Translations under genes and position numbers: made by a program
NCBI GenBank assembly: GCA_903842025.1
Contig: CAIMKX010000048.1
Location: forward strand, 1-56,202
DNA length: 56,202 nt
DNA from: an uncultured bacterium
Lineage (GTDB): Bacteria > Patescibacteriota > Minisyncoccia > Phycocordibacterales > PALSA-1337
Direction: 5' to 3'
Notes under the pieces: model-generated
The model's input: the letters and a program-made list of their open reading frames with translations, nothing else
Told to the model about the DNA's origin: nothing
The model's database searches: none
Part shown: piece by piece, positions 4,313 to 25,719 of the stretch
Layout of the letters: each line of letters begins with the position of its first letter
How positions within the stretch are numbered: position 1 is the first letter of the stretch

Positions 4313-5245
4313 ATGTACATTAGCCGTAAAATAATAGCGGTCTGGGTAGTGTGTCTGGCTTTGATTTTGACCGCCGTATTCGTGCGTTTTTCCAGGGTGA
4401 CATACAAGATTGGGCCGTTTCCGATTATTGTAAGCACGGCCAAGGAGAAGAGCCTTCCAACCAGTCAATCGTTTTATGATGCGGGAAATCAGGAAACCGT
4501 CGGAAACTCAACTGAGAAGCCTATTGTGCCGGTCATAAGCGCCAGGGCTTATATAGCCGGCAATGTTACGAACGGCCAGATTTATGCCACAAAGAACCCA
4601 AACCTGATCCTTCCTGTCGCTTCCATGTCCAAGTTGATAACGGCTGTGGCCGCCACGGACAGATTGTCGCTATCCGGAAAGGTTACCGTTACCAATCAGG
4701 AATTGGACGTGGCCAGTGACACCAGCCGTTTTGTTGCCGGCGAGACCTTTTCTGTCCTTGAATTACTTTATCCAATGCTGTTGAATTCATCGAACGTGGC
4801 CGCCGAAGCTCTGGCTTCCTCGACAAATAGGGCCGCATTCCTGGAATCAATGACGGCCTATGCCAAGGAGATCGGCATGCCCAAAACGTTCTTTGCCGAT
4901 CCGAGCGGTCTCAGCTCCCAAAACACGTCGACGGCGCGCGATTTTTTTACACTGTCAAAATATTTGTACAAATCCCGTCCGGATATTCTGGCCATCAGCC
5001 GGAAATCCGTCGTCTTTATTGCCACGACCACCGCCCACAATTCACACTTCTTCTACAGTATCCATCCTTTCGTGACGGATGATGAGTTCCTCGGCGGCAA
5101 AACCGGCCACACTGATGCGGCCGGTGATACTATGCTTACGATGTTAAGAATTAATAATCAGCCGATCGCGATCGTTGTTTTGAAGTCTGACAATCGATAC
5201 AAGGACACCAAACTAATTGTTGAGCAGATACGGAAACTGATCTGA
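4313..5245 (+). CDS. D-alanyl-D-alanine carboxypeptidase (serine peptidase S11 / low-MW PBP)
   Basis: Motifs SMSK (SxxK), SSN (SxN) and KTGHT (KTG), with an N-terminal TM anchor. The start is placed at the ATG at 4313, because the ORF-track extension 4094-4312 is translation of the hairpin. Confidence 0.8.
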   Translation: MYISRKIIAVWVVCLALILTAVFVRFSRVTYKIGPFPIIVSTAKEKSLPTSQSFYDAGNQETVGNSTEKPIVPVISARAYIAGNVTNGQIYATKNPNLILPVASMSKLITAVAATDRLSLSGKVTVTNQELDVASDTSRFVAGETFSVLELLYPMLLNSSNVAAEALASSTNRAAFLESMTAYAKEIGMPKTFFADPSGLSSQNTSTARDFFTLSKYLYKSRPDILAISRKSVVFIATTTAHNSHFFYSIHPFVTDDEFLGGKTGHTDAAGDTMLTMLRINNQPIAIVVLKSDNRYKDTKLIVEQIRKLI

Positions 5246-5307
5246 TACCTCGTAGCACCTCATGCCCTTTAAGCCCCGACGATAATTTGCGACCAATGTA
5301 CCACGTA

Positions 5308-6057
5308 CTACAACCACTTTTTTATCAGTTCCTTCGTCTCCTCCGGCCCTTTTACCGGGAAACAATCGACGCCGCTCGCCCTGGCCGGATAATCATTGCC
5401 GCCGTAGAATAGGGCGTCGCCGACAAAAGCAATCTCATCCGGATGCAGGCCCAGATATTGCTCCAGCTTCCTGATACCGTAACCCTTGTTGACTCCGCGC
5501 CTCGTGATGTCGACCGAGGTGGCTCCTCCGACCCTTTCGTCAAATTCAGGTATCTTCTTTCTCAAAAAATCCGCTATCTTCTCGCGCTTCTCCCTCGTCG
5601 GATCCCAGGCGTACTTTACTTCCACGGGGGCTTTTTGGCCCAAGGCAGAAAACGTGATCTGAGATCCGCGGTCCTCTACGATATCACCGTAGACTACCGC
5701 CGGTTTGACATAAGCAGTGGAAATTAGCGCCGAATTCAGGGCCGACATGATCCTCTCCTTTTCGGCCGCAGTAAGATTTTCAGCGTATTGCTCGACCCAG
5801 CTTCCTTTCCAGACGAATAAGCGCGTTCCTGACGTCGGTAACAACAGAAGATTGTCAAATCGGTCGCCGGCGCCTGGCAGTCTGCTGATGAATTGAGTCT
5901 CAAATTGCGGGTACCCGCCGCCAGAAATAATAGCAACTTTTTTTACCGAAAGCAGTCTGATGACAAGATCGGCCATCTCAGGGTCAATCGGGGATTTGCT
6001 TTTGGTTAGGGTACCGTCCAGATCGAATATTATGAGTTTTTTTGAGTTATCAGGCAT
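5308..6057 (-). CDS. HAD-IIB family phosphatase / phosphomannomutase-like protein
   Basis: 249 aa. HAD motif I is FDLDGTLT, with a later GDALFYGGNDYP (motif IV-like). It is adjacent to the GH130 genes. Confidence 0.7.
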   Translation of the reverse strand: MPDNSKKLIIFDLDGTLTKSKSPIDPEMADLVIRLLSVKKVAIISGGGYPQFETQFISRLPGAGDRFDNLLLLPTSGTRLFVWKGSWVEQYAENLTAAEKERIMSALNSALISTAYVKPAVVYGDIVEDRGSQITFSALGQKAPVEVKYAWDPTREKREKIADFLRKKIPEFDERVGGATSVDITRRGVNKGYGIRKLEQYLGLHPDEIAFVGDALFYGGNDYPARASGVDCFPVKGPEETKELIKKWL

Positions 6058-21393: not shown

Positions 21394-22119
21394 ATGAAAA
21401 CAGAAACCTTATTACAGTTAAAAGATATTCATGTGCACTATGGCGGCGTTAAAGCGTTGGATGGTGTGTCAGTAAGCATTGACGAAGGAGAAATAGTCGC
21501 ACTTATGGGACCGAATGGAGCAGGAAAGTCGACGATACTAAAAGCTATATTTGGATTAGCGCCTATTGATTCCGGAGTTGTGCTTTGGGAAGGTCAACAG
21601 TTTAAGCCAGTATCGTATGAAGTGGTTGAGCGAGGAGTATCATTTGTGCCACAAGGTCGTAGGGTATTTCATCATTTAACAGTGCTTGAAAATCTTGAAA
21701 TTGGTGGAATTAATGTAGAAAGCAATGCTGATAGAAAGGAGCGTATAGCTAATGTCCTTGAACTATTTCCCGCTCTTAAAACAAAACTGAAATCGAAATC
21801 TGGCACGCTATCTGGTGGTCAACAACAGATGCTAGCTATTGCTCGTGGACTTATGCCAGATCCAAAAATGCTATTACTGGATGAGCCATCACTGGGTCTT
21901 GCGCCGAAAATTGTAAAAGAGGTATTTGAGAAAATCAAAGAGATTAATGAACGTAGAAAAACTGCTATATTTGTAGTCGAGCATAATCTGAAATCGCTAC
22001 TGGAGATTACGAAGCGAGCTTATGTGCTTGATAAGGGGAAGATCTATGCTGAAGGAAATCCGAAGGAGTTGATAGAAAACAAAGTTTTAGAGCGGGTATT
22101 TCTTGGAGATTTACAGTGA
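21394..22119 (+). CDS. livF: Branched-chain amino acid ABC transporter ATP-binding protein (LivF-like)
   Basis: Walker A GPNGAGKST, signature LSGGQQQMLA, Walker B LLLLDEPS. The start is placed at the ATG at 21394, 5 nt after the livG stop. Confidence 0.85.
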   Translation: MKTETLLQLKDIHVHYGGVKALDGVSVSIDEGEIVALMGPNGAGKSTILKAIFGLAPIDSGVVLWEGQQFKPVSYEVVERGVSFVPQGRRVFHHLTVLENLEIGGINVESNADRKERIANVLELFPALKTKLKSKSGTLSGGQQQMLAIARGLMPDPKMLLLDEPSLGLAPKIVKEVFEKIKEINERRKTAIFVVEHNLKSLLEITKRAYVLDKGKIYAEGNPKELIENKVLERVFLGDLQ

Positions 22120-22138
22120 CCATAGTATAATCATTTCT

Positions 22139-22564
22139 ATGAAAATATATGTAATAGGTAGTACAGCGTTTGTTAAAGATATGGTTGCGTATACGGATAA
22201 ACTCGTAGCTGATGGCTATAATGCTTGGATACATCCCGAGTACAGGGACTATGTAACAAATAAAAATCATTCTCATCTAAAGAGAATTGAGGATGGCGAA
22301 CATGCAAAAGTTAAGATCGAAAATGATTACATTAGACAGCATTACAATCATATTTTGGAAAGCGATGCGATATTTGTAGTCAATATGGAGAAAAATAATA
22401 TTAAGGGATATATAGGAGGAAATGTACTTATGGAATTGGGTTTTGCGTATGTAAATAACAAAAAAATATTTTTGTTGAATTCGATACCAGATATGCCTTA
22501 CAAAGAAGAAATTGAGGCGGTTCTGCCGATTGTTCTCAATGGTGAATTTTCAAAGATTAAATGA
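22139..22564 (+). CDS. Nucleoside 2-deoxyribosyltransferase-like small protein
   Basis: 141 aa from the ATG at 22139. MKIYVIGS... and ...GGNVLMELGFAYVNNKKIFLL resemble the NDT-like fold signature. Weak call. Confidence 0.4.
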   Translation: MKIYVIGSTAFVKDMVAYTDKLVADGYNAWIHPEYRDYVTNKNHSHLKRIEDGEHAKVKIENDYIRQHYNHILESDAIFVVNMEKNNIKGYIGGNVLMELGFAYVNNKKIFLLNSIPDMPYKEEIEAVLPIVLNGEFSKIK

Positions 22565-22723: not shown

Positions 22724-23257
22724 TTACCGGCACTCAAAGAGCATTGGCTGATCTTTTTCAACACCACTCCGTCTTCCACTATAAACCCATTCAACATCGA
22801 GGATTTCTCCACGATGAGGTGTGATTTTAAATACCGCGCTGGGACAACCCATGCCACTGATAAATTTATCTCCTGTCTGGCATTCAATGGAAGACATGTA
22901 GACCCACCATGTCTGACTAAGATATTCTGAAGGAATCTGAGCCCTAACCTCCTCGAAATTCATTGCCAATCTTACTGGTGTAGCGTCAGAACAGATTGTC
23001 AAGCCGTTCTTTTTAGCTATATCATCTGGTGTCCAAGGATATATGGCCACATCGTAGCCAAACTCATCAGCCATGGCGATTCTGAGGGTGACTTGATTCC
23101 CGATGGTGTTACAGAAGTAACTGTTGCGAATCGCCCTCATTACACTATCATTTTTTGCGAACTTATCTTCAGCGTCCTTTAGAAACTTACTAAAAGTCCC
23201 CTTGAATGCTGGGATTTCAATTCTGACCTCCCGACGAGATATTATACATGTTTTCAT
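22724..23257 (-). CDS. Hypothetical protein (177 aa), monocistronic orphan
   Basis: The ORF is bounded by terminators on both sides. No motif recognised. Confidence 0.5.
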   Translation of the reverse strand: MKTCIISRREVRIEIPAFKGTFSKFLKDAEDKFAKNDSVMRAIRNSYFCNTIGNQVTLRIAMADEFGYDVAIYPWTPDDIAKKNGLTICSDATPVRLAMNFEEVRAQIPSEYLSQTWWVYMSSIECQTGDKFISGMGCPSAVFKITPHRGEILDVEWVYSGRRSGVEKDQPMLFECR

Positions 23258-23385: not shown

Positions 23386-23412
23386 GAAAACGCCGGCCTG
23401 TACGGCGTTTTC
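23386..23412. terminator. Bidirectional rho-independent terminator
   Basis: aaaacgccg-gcctgta-cggcgtttt, with A/T runs on both sides. Confidence 0.75.
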
Positions 23413-23433: not shown

Positions 23434-24054
23434 CTATTTCACCAAACACACCTGATTATGCATATTCCAGATAAGATCTGATACGACGAATGAGTTTTCA
23501 GCGTTACTTGTTAACAGATTACCGATGATTCTTTTATATTCGATCAAACTATCCATTTGGGCTTCTTGTGCAGTTCTGCCTTTGATCAGCGAGAGTGGTA
23601 CCTGATTTGAAGTTTCAAAAAATGGTTTAGCATATTCATCTTTTAATGGTTCTGTGACGAGAGCTTTATCTGTCCAGAATCTGAATAATTCACTGTAACC
23701 AATGAAAGCTTTGCAACCCTCTTTTATCGCTTGTGGCCCGAGAGCTTTACCGGAATCGCATGAGCGCATATAGACGATCTTGTCCTTGAGGAGGTATGAA
23801 TTTTCACCTGATACTATGAGAGGTTCTTCGTCATGTCCAGTAACACAGACATCATTTCCGTGTCCATTGAAAATGGCAATTTCGGGATTTTGCTTTTCAA
23901 GATAGCTTTCCACAAGCTTACGCGAAGCTTTATCTTTTTCCAAATCAAAAACCTTGCCGATTCTGCGTTTTGCTTCTTTAACGATTTCTTCACTCCAATG
24001 ATAGAAATAGTGAGTGACTGATTCGTATCTGGGACGAGTGATTAGTAGTGACAT
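23434..24054 (-). CDS. Minimal clan-CD-like (caspase/legumain-like) putative cysteine protease fold protein
   Basis: 206 aa. A hydrophobic strand followed by His-Gly (IAIFNGHGND), and a second hydrophobic strand followed by Cys (IVYMRSCDSGK; compare legumain E-A-C-E-S-G). This spacing and order is typical of the clan CD His/Cys dyad. By-eye inference only. Confidence 0.45.
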   Translation of the reverse strand: MSLLITRPRYESVTHYFYHWSEEIVKEAKRRIGKVFDLEKDKASRKLVESYLEKQNPEIAIFNGHGNDVCVTGHDEEPLIVSGENSYLLKDKIVYMRSCDSGKALGPQAIKEGCKAFIGYSELFRFWTDKALVTEPLKDEYAKPFFETSNQVPLSLIKGRTAQEAQMDSLIEYKRIIGNLLTSNAENSFVVSDLIWNMHNQVCLVK

Positions 24055-24056
24055 AA

Positions 24057-24293
24057 TTATGCGACAGGTAAATCTCGAAGCGATCGGAGGAAGAATAACT
24101 GCGACTCAACAAGCTTCTTGCCGACCTCGGTTTGCTTTTTAACTTCTTCGATTAGTGAATCAACTGACATTGGCTCATTGTCTCCACCAACAGAGAGATT
24201 GGCATTCGAAGGTATAGTCTTCAAACGAGCAACAACCAAATTGATAATTTCTTGGTTTAATTCTTTTGAATTGTTAGTTATAGTTTTGCTCAT
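24057..24293 (-). CDS. Hypothetical small protein (78 aa), paralog of 24297-24491
   Basis: Shares a P-x-[ST]-x(11)-TE[VL]GKK[LI][VL]E block with the upstream 64-aa ORF. Only a 2-3 nt gap to each neighbouring gene. Confidence 0.55.
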   Translation of the reverse strand: MSKTITNNSKELNQEIINLVVARLKTIPSNANLSVGGDNEPMSVDSLIEEVKKQTEVGKKLVESQLFFLRSLRDLPVA

Positions 24294-24296
24294 AAT

Positions 24297-24491
24297 TTAT
24301 TCAGTAGGTATGAATTTAAGTTCAACGAGTTTCTCAAGTATCTTTTTACCAAGCTCAGTGTCAGCATTAATCTCTCTGTAAGCGACTTCCCACGTAATAG
24401 GACCACCTTGATTTTCACCCAAGTCTAATACTATCTCCTTGCGAATGTTCATAGGCAGATTAGCGTAGAATTTGAAAAATTTATCTTTCAT
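24297..24491 (-). CDS. Hypothetical small protein (64 aa), first gene of the 3-gene operon
   Basis: The ORF is preceded by an extended -10 promoter. Paralogous to the 78-aa ORF. Confidence 0.55.
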   Translation of the reverse strand: MKDKFFKFYANLPMNIRKEIVLDLGENQGGPITWEVAYREINADTELGKKILEKLVELKFIPTE

Positions 24492-24537
24492 AATTGATTG
24501 CTATTAGTATACTCCACTTTGTCTATAATTCAAAGAG

Positions 24538-24566
24538 ATTATACCATACATATAGACGAGCAATGG
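24538..24566 (-). promoter_or_regulatory. Extended -10 promoter for the 24491->23434 operon
   Basis: The minus strand reads TGGTATAAT (TGn-TATAAT), with the -10 hexamer at 24543-24538, about 47 nt upstream of the ATG. The -35 is weak. Confidence 0.4.
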
Positions 24567-24654: not shown

Positions 24655-24839
24655 GATGCTCTGTGCAGGAGGCGAGGATTTGACGAGGGTCAGGGGTCGG
24701 ATAGCCCTGTATTTTCCATTTTTTAATTACTCGTATAGTCACCTCGCAAGATCGTCCCGTGGACAAGCACACCACTCGTCCCGGCCCAACTTTAAGTGTG
24801 ATAAGCGGTTACTATTTCGCCACTCCTGCACGGAGCATC
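24655..24839 (+). ncRNA. Unclassified structured RNA (~185 nt) closed by a 17-bp terminal helix
   Basis: gatgctctgtgcaggag (24655-24671) pairs with ctcctgcacggagcatc (24823-24839). The single non-Watson-Crick position is G-U only on the plus strand. Further helices: gcgagg/cctcgc, caggg/ccctg, gtcc/ggac, cacac/gtgtg. It is a GC-rich island in AT-rich surroundings, and translation of the overlapping ORF looks non-protein-like. Confidence 0.55.
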
Positions 24840-24858: not shown

Positions 24859-25719
24859 CTATAGATACCTTTGAGCGTTAGCCAGCATTTCGTTCTTGTC
24901 GAAATTCAAATACATCAAGGCCGAATATGGACTAACGTGGCCTAGCATCATCTGAATATCTTTGAGATCGGCCCCGCTTGCCTTCATGCGGTGAGCTTTG
25001 GCATGTCGGAACATGTGCGGATGGATACGAGTTACGATGCCGGCTTCAGCGGCGATCTCTCTGGTCCAGCGTTCTACTGTTCTAGGTGTTATGCGTCCAC
25101 GGCCTTTATGATCGAGCGAAAGAAACAAATTTGGCTTTTGATTGAGGCAGATTCTACTACCGAGCCAACGAAGCAAGGTATCGTGATGAAAATCTTTGCC
25201 CCACATAATCCAGCGAGTATTCTTATTCTTCTTGTTCTCAATCGAGGTAAAGTTTTCGGTAGAAGATATTTGATTAACATTAAGATCACAAAGCTCGCCG
25301 ACACGAACACCTGTATCACGAAGAAGATGCAATATAGTGAGCTTTTGCAGATCATTTGTTTCCCACGGATTTAGGGTGGCGCACATTGCCTTGAAATCTT
25401 CATCACTCACACCTATACGAGGCTTTTTGGCGTATCTCGGTTCTTGAATGAGGAATGGATTGACCGATGATTCTTGAGTCGAATTGAGATAGCGGAAAAA
25501 ATTTTTCATGATCCGGCAGGAAAATGCTACAGTCGGCGGATTACATTTGGCAGAGAGGTGATGATTGAATTCGACGATGTCGCGATCGGTATATTCCTTC
25601 GTATCCTTATCTCTAAAATTACATAGGCGACGCAGGTATGGCTGATATATTTCTGCAGCCCGAGGACTGCGGATTACTTTCCAATCAGTATAATTTCTAA
25701 TTGCTTGCTGAATAGTCAT
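24859..25719 (-). CDS. Tyrosine recombinase / phage integrase family
   Basis: 286 aa. RDTGVRVGEL (box I Arg), HPHMFRHAKAHRM (HxxR), LGHVSPYSALMYL (His...Tyr). Confidence 0.85.
   Translation of the reverse strand: MTIQQAIRNYTDWKVIRSPRAAEIYQPYLRRLCNFRDKDTKEYTDRDIVEFNHHLSAKCNPPTVAFSCRIMKNFFRYLNSTQESSVNPFLIQEPRYAKKPRIGVSDEDFKAMCATLNPWETNDLQKLTILHLLRDTGVRVGELCDLNVNQISSTENFTSIENKKNKNTRWIMWGKDFHHDTLLRWLGSRICLNQKPNLFLSLDHKGRGRITPRTVERWTREIAAEAGIVTRIHPHMFRHAKAHRMKASGADLKDIQMMLGHVSPYSALMYLNFDKNEMLANAQRYL

Follow-up and report, generated by a model that had tools for sequence, protein, structure and literature searches.

The question raised by a 56,202-nt contig from an uncultured bacterium of the Patescibacteriota (GenBank assembly GCA_903842025.1, contig CAIMKX010000048.1; we refer to this whole stretch as the window) is whether three small, closely packed genes at positions 23434–24491 make up a system of their own, and what such a system might do. 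The genes, which we designated A, B and C in their order on the minus strand, encode proteins of 64 residues (A, 24491–24297, pI 5.4), 78 residues (B, 24293–24057, pI 6.2) and 206 residues (C, 24054–23434), with spacers of 3 nt between A and B and 2 nt between B and C; A and B share one reading frame, with only TAA-ATT between them (24294–24299). An initial annotation had given the three open reading frames (ORFs) this same placement, strand and 2–3-nt spacing, which proved exact. It had further proposed that the 206-residue protein is a minimal caspase- or legumain-like protein, that A and B arose by duplication, and that the position of the genes beside a prophage-like element in an accessory island makes a defence, exclusion or toxin-type function reasonable. 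We find that A, B and C form a conserved three-gene unit whose largest product is very probably a stand-alone peptidase domain of the clan-CD fold, and that its location tells little about its role.

Modelling of protein C by AlphaFold2 from a 36-sequence alignment gave a predicted local distance difference test (pLDDT) score of 97.3 and a predicted template-modelling (pTM) score of 0.93. In the model, a strand (residues 2–7) is followed by helices (12–31), a second strand (34–39), a helix (45–54) and a strand (59–63) that leads directly into G64-H65-G66 and a small hairpin; the rest of the chain consists of a strand (93–97) running into S98-C99, a helix (105–111), a strand (116–120), a helical bundle (143–200) and a final strand (201–205). 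As predicted, this order of strands and helices is caspase-type. A Foldseek search of the PDB with the model returned as its best match the SAVED-CHAT protease 8tl0 (E-value 2.5e-6, query-normalised TM-score 0.56–0.58, 17–18% identity), followed by gingipain R, caspase-11 and caspase-4, and then by the TPR-CHAT protease of Craspase, C11 peptidases, PIGK of the glycosylphosphatidylinositol (GPI) transamidase, legumain and separase. Over all clan-CD matches the Foldseek probability was 0.98–1.0 and the query-normalised TM-score 0.5–0.59, while generic Rossmann-like folds appeared only lower in the list. The resemblance to caspases and legumain that had been read from two motifs, IAIFNGHGND and IVYMRSCDSGK, both of which are in C of the window, is thus borne out by the model, in that the top specific matches all belong to clan CD, and we are highly confident that C adopts this fold.

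The candidate catalytic residues are placed as the initial annotation described them. His65 (in NGHG) and Cys99 (in R-[SA]-C) each come directly after a hydrophobic strand, these being the third and fourth main strands of the model, and they are kept in homologs, being invariant in the 36 diverse sequences and present in 100% of 293 distinct full-length sequences. Other invariant or near-invariant residues of C are N63, G64, G66, G73, L105, G106, G119, Y120, P136 and D139; of these the invariant D139, together with the near-invariant R7, would by inference be a candidate for the specificity pocket. We consider it likely that C is an active peptidase.

By sequence, C stands apart from the characterized families of its clan. 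Even at E-values up to 1 we found no match between C and the Pfam families CHAT (PF12770), Peptidase_C14, C13, C11 or C25, and the sole Pfam matches, to DUF7073 (15 bits) and TATR (12 bits), were noise. Searches against NCBIfam, PHROGs and PADLOC and a profile search of PDB sequences also gave no match. The family itself is large: a word-indexed search found 91 clusters of homologs, and an exhaustive profile search found 2,707 representatives (50%-identity clusters) at E-values of 1e-3 or less, 395 of them at 1e-30 or less. Almost all of the best 150 of these 2,707 relatives are stand-alone proteins of 205–220 residues. Since the predicted fold is that of clan CD and yet no profile library recognises the protein, C represents a new clan-CD sequence family, structurally nearest to CHAT and cut down to the catalytic domain. 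No N-terminal signal sequence was seen on C, whose first strand begins at residue 2, and for this reason we expect the protein to be cytoplasmic.

The partnership of C with A and B extends well beyond the window. When we gathered 103 loci around homologs of C and scanned every ORF in them with profiles of A, B and C, the order A then B then C on one strand was found in every locus with sufficient upstream DNA (95 loci with A, 99 with B and 104 with C). Nine loci had no A, and five of these also had no B; in all nine, C lies within ~350 nt of a contig end. Loci fetched in the reverse direction, by way of A homologs, added three further lineages (a bacterium of the candidate phyla radiation [CPR], a metagenome-assembled genome [MAG] of Gracilibacteria, and an ‘ainarchaeum’ archaeon), and all of these had B as well as a C with intact NGHG and Cys motifs, so that the co-occurrence of the three genes in other genomes, on which the initial annotation depended, holds from both directions. 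Junction spacers in 83 distinct loci are mostly between -4 and +8 nt. Ratios of nonsynonymous to synonymous substitution (dN/dS) against close relatives are 0.013–0.035 for A, 0.045–0.10 for B and 0.033–0.067 for C, and the pairwise distances of the proteins are correlated (r = 0.82 for A–C and 0.83 for B–C, values reached in 0 of 500 permutations). Mean pairwise identity is highest in A (0.48), followed by C (0.41) and B (0.37). Because the order recurs, the dN/dS values are low and His65 and Cys99 are completely conserved, A, B and C are to be taken as real genes of one conserved unit; that the module is real is close to certain, and the data show a co-inherited, translationally coupled and self-sufficient trio under purifying selection. 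In agreement with the claim that the architecture corresponds to no described system, we found no description of the module in Pfam, NCBIfam, PHROGs, PADLOC, PDB sequences or the searchable literature.

There is no fourth conserved gene, as no neighbour family occurs in more than 4 of 77 non-redundant locus groups (defined by less than 85% identity in C). Two candidates for such a gene, a 177-residue ORF downstream of C in the window (22724–23257) and a 163-residue ORF of loci L001–L003, were rejected because they are not common to other loci. The 177-residue ORF, which lies on the minus strand just past the terminator described below, had no match in Pfam, NCBIfam, PADLOC or PHROGs. Three loci depart in their own ways from the usual arrangement. 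In L021 (MAG GL140_4, JANXZK010000020.1; L021:5001–5469) C is a pseudogene, with an internal deletion of ~180 nt that removes residues ~123–184 and shifts the frame. In L014 (Patescibacteria UBA5187, DHWH01000026.1) there are two copies of C with ~95% protein identity, ~4.7 kb apart (1–255 and 4552–5621), which would reflect either that the module was recently duplicated or that the MAG was wrongly assembled here. In L104 (3001–6010), a CPR contig, the start of the trigger factor gene overlaps the stop codon of C and is followed by genes for ClpP and RNase Y, and the triad there may be co-transcribed with these protein-quality-control genes.

Proteins A and B were as unfamiliar to the databases as C. 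Profile searches found 425 clusters of A homologs and 314 of B homologs, with nothing for either protein in Pfam, NCBIfam, PHROGs, PADLOC or PDB sequences. A, the most conserved of the three, has invariant residues F5, P13, R17, P31, W34, E40, T45, I51 and L55, and its AlphaFold model (114-sequence alignment; pLDDT 91.8, pTM 0.78) is a small alpha/beta protein with a helix at 2–10, a short helix at 14–17, a beta-hairpin of strands 20–23 and 31–33, and helices at 34–42 and 46–57. Compared with the PDB this model gave only unrelated folds (best E-value 0.58), and the best E-value against BFVD was 1.2. B has a conserved core, in which Gly58 is invariant and R23, G36 and L69 are nearly so, flanked by variable N- and C-terminal tails. 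The duplication proposed in the initial annotation fared less clearly than its other claims on the proteins. The block P-x-[ST]-x11-TE[LV]GKK[IL][LV]E on which it was based is present in both (residues 31–53 of A and 41–63 of B), MAFFT superposed the two families from end to end with each of the settings used, and a profile-profile comparison by hhalign gave P = 6e-5 with a probability of 65% over 30 columns, a second run giving E = 1.3e-3 with a probability of 19% over 36 columns. These values are suggestive, and B is a probable distant paralog of A, though paralogy is not proven. In one 972-bp ENA contig A and B are joined in a single frame as a 153-residue protein (P0244), the B part of which is identical to a separate protein (P0242); the join may be a true fusion, may stem from an error in sequencing, or may hint that the stop codon is read through. 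A helix-turn-helix (HTH) in A and B, considered on account of a LP..R..I.L...T...A...T..G pattern and of sub-threshold matches of the B profile (given below), was rejected, as neither the PDB nor BFVD offered the A model an HTH, winged-HTH or ribbon-helix-helix (RHH) match, both proteins are acidic, and neither had a Pfam HTH match at E-values of 1 or less.

Judged from sequence, the operon is self-contained, with a putative promoter and a probable terminator of its own. The promoter-like element that is conserved among relatives lies on the minus strand at 24506–24533, with a -35 box TTGAAT (24533–24528), a 16-nt spacer and a -10 box TATACT (24511–24506) ending 14 nt ahead of the ATG of A. 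In an alignment of 12 upstream regions from related loci, TATACT is kept in all 12 and a TTGAAT-like -35 box occurs in most. The initial annotation had instead named the extended -10 box TGGTATAAT (24538–24546, minus strand). This box exists as read from the sequence and could be a second or alternative promoter; however, it is shared only by the window and L021 among the compared loci, has no -35 box, and was missed by a two-hexamer consensus promoter scan that finds TTGAAT-N16-TATACT, the conserved element 20–30 nt downstream of it. The TATACT box is contained in a perfect 8-bp palindrome, AGTATACT. A further motif, (T)CGTCT(A/T), precedes the -35 box by ~13–25 nt both in the window and in most of the compared close relatives (L001, L013, L014, L016, L018, L021 and L024), and both it and the palindrome may be regulatory sites. 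On the downstream side, the annotated terminator was readily located: a G+C-rich hairpin (23386–23412) with a 10-bp stem including 6 G-C pairs begins 22 nt past the stop codon of C and is a probable, possibly bidirectional, operon terminator. It falls inside the stretch of DNA homology between the window and L021.

The source names attached to homologs of A, B and C are all those of CPR/Patescibacteria or of archaeal MAGs, the latter mostly DPANN. The CPR names include Paceibacteria/Paceibacterota, Nomurabacteria, Sungiibacteriota, Staskawiczbacteria, Curtissbacteria, Levybacteria, Gracilibacteria and MAGs labelled ‘Saccharibacteria’, and the archaeal names are Diapherotrites, ‘ainarchaeum’ and one MAG labelled Euryarchaeota. 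The closest relative of the window is a Paceibacterota MAG with 87% identity in C. No relatives of C were found in collections of phages (50,697 records), plasmids (72,556 records) or IMG/VR, the search of the last being made by means of the peptide patterns that gave 104 relatives in metagenomes.

The argument from genomic context did not survive comparison with other loci. Adjoining the triad on its upstream side is indeed an inovirus-like prophage (24859–~31000, minus strand) with genes for a tyrosine integrase (24859–25719), a rolling-circle Rep of the ORF2/G2P family (PF23343; 25760–26557) and a Zot-like assembly ATPase (PF05707; 26619–27398), all on the minus strand, and the integrase gene is 367 nt from the triad in the same orientation. 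The integrase, Rep and Zot genes are absent from all ~100 homologous triad loci, and DNA similarity between the window and its relatives begins at the ATG of A (24492) and ends at the stop codon of C (~23431), except that in L021 it continues upstream to window position 24740. We saw no att repeats flanking the triad and no clear ones at the inovirus-like element, nor any shift in G+C content around the triad. In L013, L021 and L024 the triad is near chromosomal genes homologous to those at 10.4–13.6 kb of the window and not near phage genes. By this comparison the position of the prophage beside the triad is incidental. The remainder of the prophage includes unannotated ORFs of 462 and 109 residues, and it may be noteworthy in its own right that a probable Paceibacteria (CPR) genome contains a filamentous prophage. 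The homologs of the 10.4–13.6 kb genes lie 1–4 kb downstream of the triad in L013, L021 and L024 and ~10 kb away in the window, where the intervening DNA holds two unannotated ORFs and, at 15.9–22.1 kb, an operon for a branched-chain amino-acid-type ATP-binding cassette transporter with permeases, ATPases and two periplasmic binding proteins. This difference in distance points to a putative insertion or rearrangement on the downstream side of the window triad. A 153-residue ORF on the plus strand (22103–22564) had a weak match to nucleoside 2-deoxyribosyltransferases (E-value 0.018), and an Rfam search of the window found two tRNAs only, both far from the triad.

A Pfam and PADLOC census of 112 immediate neighbours in the 77 locus groups, made with no formal background control, likewise gave no sign of the defence-island enrichment that the initial annotation had led one to expect. 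The neighbours are heterogeneous, with no family in more than three of them, and include HIT, FtsZ, DnaG, Lgt, CCA-adding enzyme, ComM-like and DksA/TraR genes, with an occasional restriction or nucleotidyltransferase gene; A, B and C themselves matched no family in PADLOC-DB v2 at E-values of 1 or less. A defence or toxin-type role for the triad is possible, although, because the prophage adjacency is incidental and there is no defence-island signal, such a role cannot be argued from location.

How, then, might the three proteins work together? A free cytoplasmic protease with neither a sensor domain nor a prodomain would need control in trans, for which A and B are the obvious candidates; we think it somewhat more likely than not that A and B are physical partners of C. 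Consistent with this is the charge complementarity of the families, acidic A and B facing basic C (median pI 5.7, 5.3 and 8.6, respectively). Our working interpretation, which we hold tentatively and at somewhat less than an even chance, is that the module follows the logic of a protease and its inhibitor, or of a toxin-antitoxin system, with C held in check or directed by the co-translated A and B. The two small proteins, probably joined in a heteromer, would bind C and hold it inactive or limit its targets; were the partners lost, titrated or cleaved, C would cut cellular or invader proteins. In such a scheme the labile neutraliser or pseudo-substrate would more plausibly be B, the fastest-evolving of the three, which has variable tails and adjoins or overlaps C, and the structural or regulatory subunit would more plausibly be A, in view of its extreme constraint. 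The layout is that of a toxin-antitoxin system, with small upstream genes and a larger downstream gene in a compact operon found in variable contexts, and we also count in favour of this interpretation that in L021 the wrecked C is still accompanied by intact A and B genes, with the two promoter boxes and the terminator also intact. Several observations weigh against it. A is more conserved than the enzyme (identity 0.48 versus 0.41), which is unusual for an antitoxin, and its model shows no DNA-binding antitoxin fold (HTH or RHH), both A and B being acidic. Disrupted genes among 76 numbered four for C, one for A and none for B, counts that do not differ from the expectation from gene length, and asymmetric decay as a signature of a toxin was set aside because there are too few such events. 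The lack of C relatives in phage, plasmid and IMG/VR collections counts on the same side, as do the mostly housekeeping neighbours and the synteny kept among close relatives, since these are no less compatible with a stable cellular function than with a selfish or defence module.

The same constraint on A would be expected if C acted on its neighbours and not the reverse. C might mature A and/or B, for instance by trimming the variable C-terminal tail of B or cutting a fused A-B precursor, with the processed products serving a housekeeping role in these ultra-small cells. The dN/dS of A, with conservation above that of C, is as for a functional end-product, and the variable tails around the core of B, the natural A-B fusion P0244 and the shared frame of A and B in the window would fit with processing, as would the often housekeeping flanks (with tig-clpP directly after the triad in L104) and the synteny in close relatives. 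We nevertheless regard maturation as unlikely, given that there is no conserved cleavage motif at the C-terminus of A or in the tail of B, the frame relation of A and B varies across loci, the one fusion is on a 972-bp contig and could be a sequencing error, the patchy and inter-domain distribution speaks against a core function, and L021 retains intact A and B beside a non-functional C. A related proposal, in which C cleaves A or B and ligates it to a target as a one-enzyme protein-tagging system after the manner of GPI8/PIGK, legumain-type ligases or PorU, takes up the PIGK and legumain matches of C and the fact that A, like protein modifiers, is small, very conserved and encoded beside an enzyme. 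The model of A is however compact alpha/beta with a short hydrophobic end, and has no beta-grasp, flexible conserved tail or Gly-Gly-type motif; there is no evident acceptor, all of the support comes from analogy, and we judge this conjugation activity improbable.

If A and B instead sensed an infection cue and C then killed or arrested the cell, the module would be an abortive-infection system comparable to the CHAT and caspase-like effectors in cyclic-oligonucleotide-based antiphage signalling systems (CBASS), type III CRISPR and gasdermin systems. Here the structural neighbours of C are suggestive, the nearest being the defence proteases SAVED-CHAT and Craspase, and the module is compact, self-contained and horizontally spread, also across domains; some loci even lie beside nucleotidyltransferase (MNT-like), AbiEii, SocA/Panacea or restriction genes. 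Set against this are the want of any PADLOC match for A, B or C, the census of 112 neighbours, where no defence family is enriched and any one family is matched at most 2–3 times among many housekeeping genes, the incidental prophage, and the fact that neither a sensor nor a nucleotide-binding domain can be recognised in the module, and we hold a defence function of this kind to be quite unlikely. That A and B are DNA-binding repressors cleaved by C, as in the ImmR/ImmA and CapH/CapP switches, would be in keeping with the palindrome around the -10 box and with sub-threshold matches of the B profile to OmpR-type winged helices and extracytoplasmic function (ECF) sigma region 4 (E-values 0.6–0.9). 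The A model, with its PDB matches confined to unrelated folds, the acidity of A and B and their lack of Pfam HTH matches all speak against such a transcription switch, which moreover would have no conserved downstream operon to regulate, and we disfavour it as very improbable. Finally, the short distance and common orientation of triad and integrase gene are what would be expected of prophage cargo (a moron) or of part of a mobile accessory island. This origin is effectively refuted by the ~100 homologous loci devoid of these phage genes, by the native upstream intergenic DNA that L021 shares to 24740 and the chromosomal genes beside the triad in L013, L021 and L024, by the lack of flanking att repeats and of a G+C shift, and by the phage, plasmid and IMG/VR collections having no C homologs.

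Returning to the protease with partners acting in trans, what is new here is a family of a known protease clan, an undescribed three-gene architecture and two partners of unrecognised fold, one of which (A) is under exceptional constraint. In eukaryotes, proteases of the caspase fold have a central part in programmed cell death and in immunity, and the same has recently been shown in bacteria, for CHAT/Craspase and in the activation of gasdermins. A family of bare ~206-residue catalytic domains that keeps an intact dyad, that has no detectable link by sequence to any curated family, and that is large even at 50%-identity clustering, offers a useful minimal model for regulation of the caspase fold in trans. 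Wherever a source names an organism, it is a CPR bacterium or an archaeal MAG (mostly DPANN), organisms with tiny genomes in which nearly every conserved module likely matters, and the presence of the same trio in bacteria and archaea of similar lifestyle makes a clean case of inter-domain module transfer. It is a more doubtful proposition that the triad is a new protease-based module of ultra-small episymbiotic CPR/DPANN lineages, exchanged between the domains and built from a minimal caspase-like enzyme and an orphan-fold heterodimer; so understood, it could be a new toxin-antitoxin or abortive-infection class with a caspase-like toxin, or a one-enzyme processing or tagging system for a 64-residue protein of extreme conservation. 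Either a protease toxin or a processing or tagging system would, if true, be a new class of mechanism, and would to our knowledge provide the smallest self-sufficient caspase-fold peptidase architecture, along with a new small-protein fold.

Among known systems, CHAT proteases (SAVED-CHAT of CBASS and type III CRISPR, 8tl0; TPR-CHAT/Csx29 of Craspase, 7y84 and 8d9f) are the best structural matches of C, with which they share the alpha/beta caspase-like fold, the order of His then Cys, each after a hydrophobic strand, and a prokaryotic, cytoplasmic setting. CHAT-type proteases are kept inactive until triggered. They are proteins of 450–700 residues with SAVED or TPR sensor domains, whereas C is a bare 206 residues, has two small orphan-fold proteins as its partners, and had no CRISPR or CBASS genes nearby in the examined loci. 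The same His-Gly and Cys topology is found in gingipain (C25), caspases and metacaspases (C14), clostripain-like peptidases (C11), legumain and GPI8/PIGK (C13) and separase (C50); unlike these families, C has no sequence-profile membership, is much smaller, lacks a prodomain, a p20/p10 processing linker and a signal peptide, and has a C-terminal helical bundle (143–200) of its own.

A precedent for a caspase-like toxin comes from polymorphic toxin systems, in which Tox-Caspase domains were proposed to be the toxins and small immunity proteins their partners (Zhang et al. 2012, PMC3482391). The triad would resemble these in having a caspase-like peptidase as its proposed toxin and a small, genetically linked neutraliser. 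Tox-Caspase domains however form the C-terminal part of large toxins that are secreted, and their immunity gene lies downstream, whereas C is stand-alone and predicted to be cytoplasmic, the two small genes are upstream, and the triad has no secretion or trafficking domains. Toxin-antitoxin operons of three genes in the order small-small-large exist (omega-epsilon-zeta), as do toxin-antitoxin-chaperone modules, and protease and inhibitor are co-transcribed in the staphopain/staphostatin pairs. The triad differs from toxin-antitoxin systems in that its proteins have no homology to their known components and in that A lacks a DNA-binding fold and exceeds the putative toxin in conservation. It is like these tripartite operons and protease-inhibitor pairs in its small-small-large layout of overlapping or abutting genes, its pairing of acidic small proteins with a basic enzyme, and its being self-contained, with a variable context and a patchy, horizontally spread distribution.

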